Shown here piece after piece: positions 49,682-50,089 of a stretch of DNA of 54,643 nucleotides. A program made the translations under genes and the position numbers. Position 1 is the first letter of the stretch, and each line of letters starts with the position of its first letter. The notes under the pieces are model-generated. The model saw only the letters and a program-made list of their open reading frames with translations, was not told where the DNA came from and ran no database searches. This DNA is from Desulfuromonas sp. Lineage in GTDB: Bacteria > Desulfobacterota > Desulfuromonadia > Desulfuromonadales > Geopsychrobacteraceae. Location of the stretch: the NCBI GenBank assembly GCA_002869665.1, contig PKUG01000183.1, positions 1 to 54,643 of the forward strand, read 5' to 3'.

Positions 49682-50089
49682 TTATGCTTGTTCTTCATAG
49701 TTACCGGGGCCGAACTCTTCATCCAGACGCGGATTGTAGAAGGCCTGCTCTTCGTAGTTGCCGGGGCCGAACTCTTCATCCAGACGCGGGTTGTAGAAGG
49801 CTTGCTCTTCGTAGTTGCCGGGGCCGAACTCTTCATCCAGGCGCGGATTGTAGAAGGCTTGCTCTTCGTAGTTACCGGGGCCGAACTCTTCATCCAGGCG
49901 CGGATTGTAGAAGGCTTGCTCTTCGTAGTTGCCGGGGCCGAATTCCTCGTCAAGGCGCGGGTTGCCACTGAATGCAGTCGGATTAATACTATCGGTGGCG
50001 AAGGATTCTGAGTTGAATTGGTTGAAACCCACAACAACAGCTGCGAGCAGAAGGCTTGCGAAAACCACATTGATTCGAGTTTTCTTCAT
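49682..50089 (-). CDS. Secreted protein: signal peptide + 5 tandem copies of NPRLDEEFGPGNYEEQA(FY)
   Basis: The start is at MKKTRINVVFASLLLAAVVVGF (Sec-type n/h regions), with AAAGGA upstream. The whole mature part consists of five identical 20-aa units. Confidence 0.7.
   Translation of the reverse strand: MKKTRINVVFASLLLAAVVVGFNQFNSESFATDSINPTAFSGNPRLDEEFGPGNYEEQAFYNPRLDEEFGPGNYEEQAFYNPRLDEEFGPGNYEEQAFYNPRLDEEFGPGNYEEQAFYNPRLDEEFGPGNYEEQA
49685..49963. repeat. 60-bp tandem repeat, about 4.7 units, inside the CDS
   Basis: The units differ at a few positions only (GTTACC/GTTGCC, CAGACG/CAGGCG, GGATT/GGGTT, GGCCTG/GGCTTG, plus several in the 5-prime-most unit). All differences are synonymous in the coding frame. 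Confidence 0.95.

Follow-up and report, generated by a model that had tools for sequence, protein, structure and literature searches.

What might a bacterium gain from exporting a protein that is little more than one short acidic peptide repeated five times? The question is raised by a gene on a 54,643-nucleotide stretch of Desulfuromonas sp. DNA (assembly GCA_002869665.1, contig PKUG01000183.1), the whole of which is called the window below. As defined by its open reading frame (ORF) and translation, the gene occupies 49682..50089 on the minus strand, with the ATG at 50089 and the TAA stop codon, included in these coordinates, at 49684-49682; it encodes 135 amino acids. Comparison of sequences strongly supports the view that the gene is real, that its product is exported by the Sec system and that the repeated unit is the entity under selection. 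It supports equally strongly that the protein belongs, as a divergent member, to a family that is uncurated and so far confined to the Desulfuromonadales. Function is a more tentative matter. At a probability of about 0.4, we read the protein as a stress-induced, disordered, multivalent binder in the periplasm, most likely of cations, and as a sponge that would work like SilE or ZraP but be related to neither.

The repeat gene and selection on its units

The protein begins with a leader, MKKTRINVVFASLLLAAVVVGFNQFNSESFA, continues through a linker, TDSINPTAFSG, and ends with NPRLDEEFGPGNYEEQAFY in four copies and a last unit, NPRLDEEFGPGNYEEQA. ORF and translation therefore agree with an earlier, sequence-only reading of the locus, which had described a secreted protein with five identical peptide units. 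That reading took the unit to be 20 amino acids or 60 bp; Tandem Repeats Finder (49686-49964) returns a period of 57, with 4.9 copies, 93% matches and no indels, and the unit is thus one of 19 amino acids or 57 bp. The array, at 49685..49963 (minus strand), is made of five such units encoding NPRLDEEFGPGNYEEQA(FY), the last of them 51 bp long and without FY.

Although the five peptide copies are identical, their DNA is not. The copies vary at 11 columns, each of them a third codon position with synonymous changes only; against the consensus there are 14 differences, none nonsynonymous. The sequence-only reading had similarly counted about ten substitutions, every one silent. Random mutations would be synonymous here in ~20-30% of cases, and the probability that 11 out of 11 are so is between 2e-8 (kappa 1) and 2e-6 (kappa 8). 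When the units are compared with each other, the proportion of synonymous differences (pS) is 0.33 and that of nonsynonymous differences (pN) is 0. These figures, and the same pattern in the homologues described below, support purifying selection on the peptide units rather than a recent duplication, as had been proposed.

It could be argued that the frame has no function at all and is either an ORF generated by the repeat or structural repetitive DNA that lacks stop codons by chance. Four of the six reading frames are open across the array, and the exact 135-residue sequence is absent from a collection of 15 billion protein sequences, in which other proteins of the window are listed (P0019). 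However, only in the frame that carries the leader is the array both open and free of amino acid change: the other three open frames have 13 nonsynonymous differences each, and one antisense frame that is also all-synonymous contains two stop codons per unit. In addition, the homologues share leader and motif and have low pN/pS; ribosome-binding site, promoter and enhancer site are conserved in relatives; a strong terminator is found in the window; and an identical gene is called on an independent ENA metagenome contig (L001; 13 kb, 99.94% identical to the window, found by exact look-up). We regard a lack of function as extremely improbable, and as effectively refuted by the comparative data. 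Three spurious ORFs also arise from the open array, at 49660-50070 (minus strand), 49679-50011 and 49684-49971 (both plus strand); they are of 95-136 amino acids, show amino acid differences between units and have no leader peptide.

Export by Sec is predicted from residues 1-31 (49997..50089, minus strand), in which inspection identifies an MKKTR n-region, a hydrophobic h-region, INVVFASLLLAAVVVGF, and a cleavage site, placed by eye, at ..S-F-A|T. The N-terminal region aligns with the leaders of the homologues and the leader is conserved across the family, in line with the Sec-type signal peptide originally proposed. It contains neither a twin-arginine motif nor a Cys, and therefore no lipobox. 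The linker (49964..49996, minus strand) had been noticed before as SINPTAFSG, to which the leading TD has to be restored; an ATD motif after the leader is common to L022, L023, L030 and P0004, and the linker is possibly a decayed partial unit (NP..F.G). The mature protein would have a mass of ~12.1 kDa, an isoelectric point of ~4 and a net charge of ~-21, and is devoid of Cys, Met, His, Lys and Trp.

A ribosome-binding site, AAGGA, lies at 50098..50102 (minus strand), 8 nt before the ATG, and aligns with AGGAG of the relatives. On the other side of the gene, beginning 21 nt past the stop codon, is an intrinsic terminator (49613..49661, minus strand) with a 19-bp stem-loop and a U-run. Its RNA fold has an energy of -40.5 kcal/mol (z -5.94, with 0 of 200 shuffles as stable), which bears out the strong terminator that had been claimed; the hairpin was recovered by folding and is not reported by a simple sigma-70/terminator scan. 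Between 49300 and 51200 the sole Rfam match is to an miRNA and is attributable to chance (E = 0.22).

Relatives of the repeat protein

The sequence-only reading knew of no described family with this unit. It is the case that none has been curated; the protein is nevertheless not an orphan, as ~25 homologues were found, all in Desulfuromonadales genomes or in metagenomes. The accompanying statement that no domain is recognisable agrees with each of the resources consulted. Pfam and NCBIfam give no significant match to the window protein (Sox17_18_mid at E = 0.062 and Excalibur at E = 0.12 are below cutoff) and, with two long relatives included, no CpxP, Spy or ZraP match. A search of PDB sequences returned insignificant MtrB matches only, and literature searches (motif strings; sigma-54, periplasmic, repeat and Desulfuromonas) found nothing relevant. 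With the window protein alone as query there is no relative in the GTDB species genomes or the JGI metagenomes, and a word-indexed homology search (query without the initial Met) gave no match.

An exhaustive phmmer search of 1.84 billion representative proteins, the matches of which were judged by reading the sequences (P0007, P0008, P0011 and P0013 being left out), gave two short proteins of the same plan. P0004 is a leader with three copies of ISPELEEQLRVGDYQGQANY, and P0005 a leader with two copies of SPRLDD[RK]ELGIG..; both leaders align with that of the window protein. The long proteins matched in the same search (P0001-3, P0006, P0009, P0010 and P0012) are unrelated repeat proteins that are alike in periodicity or composition. 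A profile of three sequences (window, P0004 and P0005) led to P0014-P0018, one of which is from a Malonomonas metagenome-assembled genome (MAG). Back-translated patterns then gave 13 loci in the GTDB species genomes, belonging to Desulfuromusa, Malonomonas, Desulfuromonas or unclassified Desulfuromonadales MAGs, and 7 further loci in the JGI metagenomes. These DNA patterns were designed from the five closest family members because the alignment with the window protein and P0004 is too divergent. Homologues share leader and motif at 35-45% identity; HemA of the window is closest to the Desulfuromusa, Malonomonas and Desulfuromonas proteins (74-80% identity), and the window itself is from an uncultured relative of these genera. 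Small repeat ORFs of the family appear to be under-represented in protein databases, and they may be under-called, because most of the ~25 relatives were recovered only from raw DNA.

Every member of the family consists of a leader followed only by 2-9 units, with the consensus SPRLDD[RK]ELGIG[ED]Y.[ED][QH]A. A logo of 92 units reads [SVTA]-P-R-L-D-D-[RKQ]-E-L-G-I-G-[ED]-Y-x-[ED]-[QHR]-A; E-L-G-I-G is present in 90-92 of the 92, and acidic residues are found in 99% of units at position 8 and in 98% at position -2. All but three of the 24 compiled proteins end exactly at the unit-closing ..[QHR]-A, and the 24 contain a single Cys, in L024. The unit of the window protein is a divergent variant, with EFGPG for ELGIG, one residue fewer and no His.

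The conservation applies to each unit rather than to the protein as a whole. Comparison of units within each of 14 family genes gives a pS of 0.3-1.0 and a pN/pS of 0.05-0.25, and the units are on these values old and individually constrained. Copy number, by contrast, is labile, as the sequence-only reading had suggested looking for, and ranges from 2 to 9 units among related genomes: L017 has three units and L029 four, behind the same leader; P0017/L032 have three and L031 four; and the nine units of L028 are arranged as a two-unit super-repeat. Some genomes have two paralogues. What is new here is a protein that is a pure tandem array of a conserved acidic motif of 19-20 amino acids in 2-9 copies. 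A divergent sigma-54 two-component system with a small periplasmic protein under its control, the proposed setting of several relatives, is of a kind already known.

Transcriptional control and gene neighbourhood

A sigma-54 type -24/-12 promoter, TGGCAT-N5-CTGCT (TGGCATGGTCCCTGCT), is located at 50172..50187 (minus strand), 98 nt before the ATG. Taken alone the box is at chance level, since the window contains 30 matches of this kind where 28 are expected; it is credible because it is conserved in relatives, and to that extent the sigma-54-like promoter originally proposed has gained support. A TGGCAC-N5-TTGA/C box is present 64-98 nt before the ATG in 17 loci, including that of the window. 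In 15 of these 17 there is also a palindrome, GT(A/T)GAATATTCTAC, upstream of the box, at a distance of 75-77 nt in most; of the two box loci not counted, L027 is on a contig too short to reach the position where the palindrome would be expected, and L001 duplicates the window almost exactly. The palindrome is perfect in L002, where it lies 97 nt upstream of the box, and occurs once per locus among the relatives, in loci of up to 20 kb. The window has two imperfect copies of GTAGAATATTCTAC, at 50263-50276 and 50284-50297, which are 89 and 110 nt upstream of the box and are the only matches in its 54.6 kb. In the promoter alignment A5, the L030 row of which was disregarded, box and palindrome stand out as conserved columns, and the sequence between them has diverged (44% mean column identity).

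At the sequence level, then, the promoter region has the GG and GC pairs 10 nt apart, a match of the TGGCAC-N5-TTGCW type and an upstream site. The palindrome copies are presumed to be the binding site of the sigma-54 activator (an enhancer, or upstream activating sequence), and the combination of box and palindrome points to sigma-54-dependent transcription by one family-specific enhancer-binding protein. Both elements are kept by the paralogues L015, L016, L022 and L023, which lie elsewhere in the genomes with the two-component operon described below, and by L002 and the window gene, the two most distant members of the family. The neighbours of all of these are unrelated, and this looks like one regulon with scattered members. 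There is also a paralogue lineage, with five and seven units, that is divergent from a LysR-type regulator (L018 8940-10378, and the equivalent in L020); the intergenic region contains an ATTCC-N5-GGAAT box. Because L018 and L020 face this regulator and have no sigma-54 elements, the family seems to be wired to at least two regulators.

Which protein might bind the palindrome is suggested by six genomes (L005/L013, L006, L014, L017, L019 and L024) in which the repeat gene is divergent from an operon encoding a histidine kinase, a regulator with the architecture Response_reg-Sigma54_activat-HTH_8, a ResA/TlpA-like thioredoxin and a CcdA-type DsbD_TM protein, with DegP/HtrA in addition in L006, L019 and L024. 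By NCBIfam the kinase is nearest to AtoS/ZraS and the regulator to AtoC/NtrC/ZraR, all below the equivalog cutoffs. N-terminally, the kinase has only a multi-transmembrane region of ~100 amino acids, with conserved His in short loops (SLHY.TG..H..H ... YAPH..F.W) and no periplasmic domain; it is encoded on the minus strand at 8655-9830 in L005, 8659-9894 in L006, 4753-6009 in L014 and 4009-5139 in L024. This region has no Pfam sensor domain and may be an undescribed membrane-embedded sensor module. No sigma-54 box for the kinase/regulator operon itself was found in the intergenic regions, where the only box near the palindrome faces the repeat gene. Further neighbours in the relatives are an AEC transporter, a PrmA-like methyltransferase or unrelated genes. 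The most window-like relatives (L004 420-1308; L002 236-4867) are in other contexts. P0005 begins 5 nt past the end of another ORF and precedes the gene for a periplasmic protein of the YceI family, and P0004 is encoded among predicted outer-membrane beta-barrel proteins and an FG-GAP-like protein.

The arrangement resembles that of ZraP in the zinc-responsive ZraSR envelope-stress system of E. coli and Salmonella. There, the divergent sigma-54 promoters of zraP and zraSR are driven by ZraR, and the zraP product is a periplasmic chaperone that binds zinc (PMC4987338). The likeness is that of a small exported protein with a sigma-54 promoter, divergent, in the relatives, from an operon for a kinase and a sigma-54 regulator. 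It does not extend to the protein itself: the repeat family has no LTXXQ motif, no match to Pfam Metal_resist (PF13801) or CpxP and no fold relationship to ZraP, but is a pure tandem array of ~19 amino acids that is predicted to be disordered. Moreover, the kinase adjacent to the family lacks a periplasmic sensor domain, and its operon carries CcdA, thioredoxin and DegP.

It is conceivable from this neighbourhood that the repeat protein is accessory to the two-component system, as a regulator or chaperone of the CpxP or ZraP type. The intact protein would bind the kinase, or misfolded envelope proteins, through its repeated motif, damp signalling and be removed by DegP under stress. A gene for a small periplasmic protein divergent from a two-component operon is what is seen at zraP-zraSR and cpxP-cpxRA; DegP is encoded in three of the operons named above; and the invariant motif suggests protein-protein recognition. 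Yet a feedback regulator has no need of 2-9 units, of drift in copy number or of more than one paralogue in a genome. The kinase offers no periplasmic docking domain, the repeat protein has neither the LTXXQ motif nor a helical-hairpin fold, and the window gene and other orphans are far from any such two-component system. We consider a role of this type unlikely, and somewhat more so than the peptide-precursor reading discussed below.

The surroundings of the gene in the window are different. Its neighbours are a MazE/PIN pair, an Fe-ADH protein, a Met-rich LTXXQ protein and an MFS transporter. The sequence-only reading had envisaged a conserved neighbourhood with the LTXXQ protein; the recurring partner in the relatives is instead the kinase and sigma-54 regulator operon. 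The LTXXQ protein (51053-51850, plus strand; 265 amino acids) is exported and rich in Met and His, with three repeats of ~37 amino acids (PCQGESFSDGMGHGMMGDMMGAGSMDHM...) and a C-terminal Spy/CpxP/ZraP-like LTXXQ domain, for which the Pfam Metal_resist and NCBIfam Spy matches are both below cutoff. Between the two divergent genes is an intergenic region of 963 bp (50090-51052), in which no gene is called on the matching ENA contig. It contains a second sigma-54-like box, TGGCATGGTCGTCGCT (50814-50829, plus strand), ~225 nt upstream of the gene for the 265-residue protein; this has TTGGCATGGTC in common with the box of the repeat gene, and there is no GTAGAATATTCTAC site near it. A palindrome, CGAAATCTGAATTCCGATTCCG (50650-50671), ~150 nt upstream of the second box, could be another activator site.

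On the other side of the repeat gene, a MazE/AbrB-type antitoxin (49065-49364, minus strand) is followed by a PIN gene (48544-49068, minus strand). PIN_3 is matched over residues 2-91 of 174 only, and the toxin is therefore probably frameshifted or degenerate, as had been suspected of this toxin-antitoxin pair. The guanine-plus-cytosine content falls from 0.60-0.64 at 34-44 kb to 0.49-0.54 at 44000-54643. Together with a T5orf172/MUG113-domain protein encoded at 45439-45906 and the toxin-antitoxin pair, both within the low-GC stretch, this is consistent with an accessory or horizontally acquired segment.

Possible functions of the array

The sequence-only reading had suggested a peptide precursor, a cation buffer or a repeat scaffold, and all three are still candidate roles. 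The reading that we prefer can be set out as follows. The activator would be the response regulator of the kinase/regulator pair that is divergent from the gene in six genomes, and this pair would form a periplasmic stress circuit responding to envelope, redox or metal stress; the latter is suggested by the operon that it shares with CcdA, a ResA/TlpA-like thioredoxin and, often, DegP. In what is the least certain step, the repeat protein would remain uncleaved in the periplasm, an intrinsically disordered polyanion in which every unit serves as a binding module. The module would be a hairpin of helix, G-x-G turn and helix that brings together the carboxylates of D-D/E-x-E and E/N-Y-x-E, the most probable ligand being a hard or divalent metal cation. 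Binding capacity would scale with the number of units. Copy-number expansion and multiple paralogues favour such a stoichiometric role, in which more units mean more capacity, over a regulatory one.

Structure prediction is compatible with this picture. AlphaFold2, run with small family alignments, gave a mean predicted local distance difference test score of 61 and a predicted template modelling score (pTM) of 0.31 for the window protein, and 58.5 and 0.17, respectively, for P0015; we read these low-confidence models as intrinsic disorder, or as folding only upon binding. In the window model each unit has two short helices, PRLDEEF and YEEQA, flanking the G-x-G turn. Conserved carboxylates on both sides of this invariant turn suggest a cation-binding module. 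Further hints are the His found at [QHR] in 28 of the 92 units, an x-T-H that follows directly on the predicted leader cleavage site in many members (by eye), the His-rich loops of the kinase and the Met/His-rich Spy/ZraP-like neighbour in the window, with its similar sigma-54 box.

Two known systems provide a comparison. The SilE and PcoE genes are separate transcription units beside a metal-responsive two-component system. SilE has been described as an intrinsically disordered periplasmic 'molecular sponge' (PMC5008109). The repeat proteins are likewise small, exported, disordered (here by prediction) and made of repeated short motifs. On the other hand, SilE and PcoE bind Ag(I)/Cu(I) by His and Met, whereas the repeat family has carboxylates and Tyr, with His in some members only and none in the window protein; its tandem units are exact and variable in number, there is no homology, and the window protein has no HxxM or MxxH motifs. 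The second comparison is with EF-hand, Excalibur and lanmodulin loops, which share with the unit an acidic stretch of 12 residues, conserved Gly and Ile and short flanking helices. By inspection, D-D-x-E-L-G-I-G-E-Y-x-E fits EF-loop positions 1, 6, 9 and 12, but positions 3, 5 and 8 do not fit (3 is R/E and 5 is L/G in the unit logo) and the window unit is one residue shorter. Excalibur was rejected on a Pfam match of 13.2 bits against a cutoff of 22 (E = 0.12) and the absence of the canonical Dx[DN]x[DN]G or DxDxDGxxCE loop.

Modified-peptide chemistries were also rejected. A PQQ-like E-x3-Y crosslink might be seen in EQAFY of the window unit; P0004 and P0005 do not retain this Glu, and a radical-SAM enzyme of the cytoplasm is at odds with a substrate that is exported. 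A bufferin or MNIO-type ribosomally synthesized and post-translationally modified peptide (RiPP) is contradicted by the lack of Cys in the protein and of an MNIO gene nearby.

Several points weigh against a cation sponge. The window variant cannot bind soft metals, as it contains no His, Cys or Met. The EF-hand register fails at positions 3 and 5, and no fixed loop geometry survives the loss of one residue from the window unit. The invariant E-L-G-I-G, together with the conserved L, Y and A, looks more like a recognition motif or a bioactive peptide than a loose chelator. As to control, P0017 and its type, L004 and L018/L020 have neither sigma-54 box nor palindrome, and it is adjacency only that links the palindrome to the adjacent regulator. 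The window holds no orthologue of the family-adjacent kinase or regulator: tblastn with the relatives' kinase, regulator, thioredoxin, CcdA and DegP gave no orthologue there, only weak paralogous two-component matches at 13.9-15.7 kb and 24.7-25.8 kb. The synteny in Desulfuromusa and Malonomonas may partly reflect close relatedness, and, as a neighbour, the Met-rich LTXXQ protein is limited to the window and the near-identical contig L001.

A released peptide, or a motif for protein recognition, would account for the invariant core of hydrophobic residues and Gly and for the precise ends of the units about as well as a binding module does. If a peptide is released, the protein would be a polyprotein precursor, in which a periplasmic protease, for example DegP/HtrA from the same operon or a different endopeptidase, cleaves the linkers after export and frees 2-9 copies of an acidic peptide of ~15-19 amino acids. 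The peptide would be a signal, possibly sensed by the adjacent kinase in a loop like those of AgrD-AgrCA or ComC-ComDE, acting via sigma-54, or else an extracellular effector. Each unit is (near-)perfectly conserved while its synonymous sites are saturated; the linker of 3-6 amino acids varies and the core E-L-G-I-G..Y..A does not; nearly all of the proteins stop at the end of the core (..[QHR]-A-COOH), and most start the core directly after the leader. The adjoining kinase, multi-transmembrane and without a periplasmic domain, is like peptide-sensing kinases, and the repeat gene appears to be the local sigma-54 target.

Multi-copy peptide precursors include yeast alpha-factor, fungal Kex2-processed RiPP precursors and multi-core bacterial RiPP precursors, to which the pheromone precursors Phr, AgrD and ComC may be added. 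The family is like these in having a leader and then tandem identical peptides, purifying selection at the level of the unit, copy-number variation and, in the relatives, a gene that adjoins a membrane-embedded kinase and a regulator. It differs in belonging to a Gram-negative periplasm under sigma-54 control, and in having no conserved cleavage motif and no syntenic maturase, peptidase or exporter. Neither a dibasic motif nor another obvious one is conserved beside the units, and a single P1 rule does not fit because the first unit begins T-H-L, not P-R-L. No processing or export gene recurs: DegP is present only at some loci, no AgrB/ComAB-like gene is seen near the relatives that carry the adjacent kinase and regulator, and no RiPP maturase (radical-SAM, ATP-grasp, YcaO, MNIO or lanthipeptide enzyme) is found among the neighbours in the window or the relatives. 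General porins are not a route across the outer membrane for a highly acidic peptide of ~2 kDa, and the orphan paralogues have unrelated neighbours. On balance we judge a cleaved precursor unlikely.

The most specific form of this proposal, a Gram-negative peptide hormone in which identical acidic peptides are sensed by the adjacent kinase and the regulator activates the precursor gene via GTAGAATATTCTAC, is a long shot. If true, it would be an autoinducing peptide circuit in metal-reducing Desulfuromonadales; to our knowledge, circuits of such a type are so far known from Gram-positive bacteria and eukaryotes.

We return, then, to the periplasmic binder as the preferred, if tentative, reading. 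The Desulfuromonadales are metal- and sulfur-reducing bacteria with a periplasm that is packed with c-type cytochromes. If the reading is correct, they would have a dedicated sigma-54 two-component circuit whose main local output is an acidic array of tunable unit number. The unit would be a compact new motif for the binding of cations or of a partner, and the response regulator and GTAGAATATTCTAC a predicted regulator-operator pair. The family would also offer a natural case of purifying selection at the level of the unit, combined with drift in copy number, in a secreted bacterial protein.

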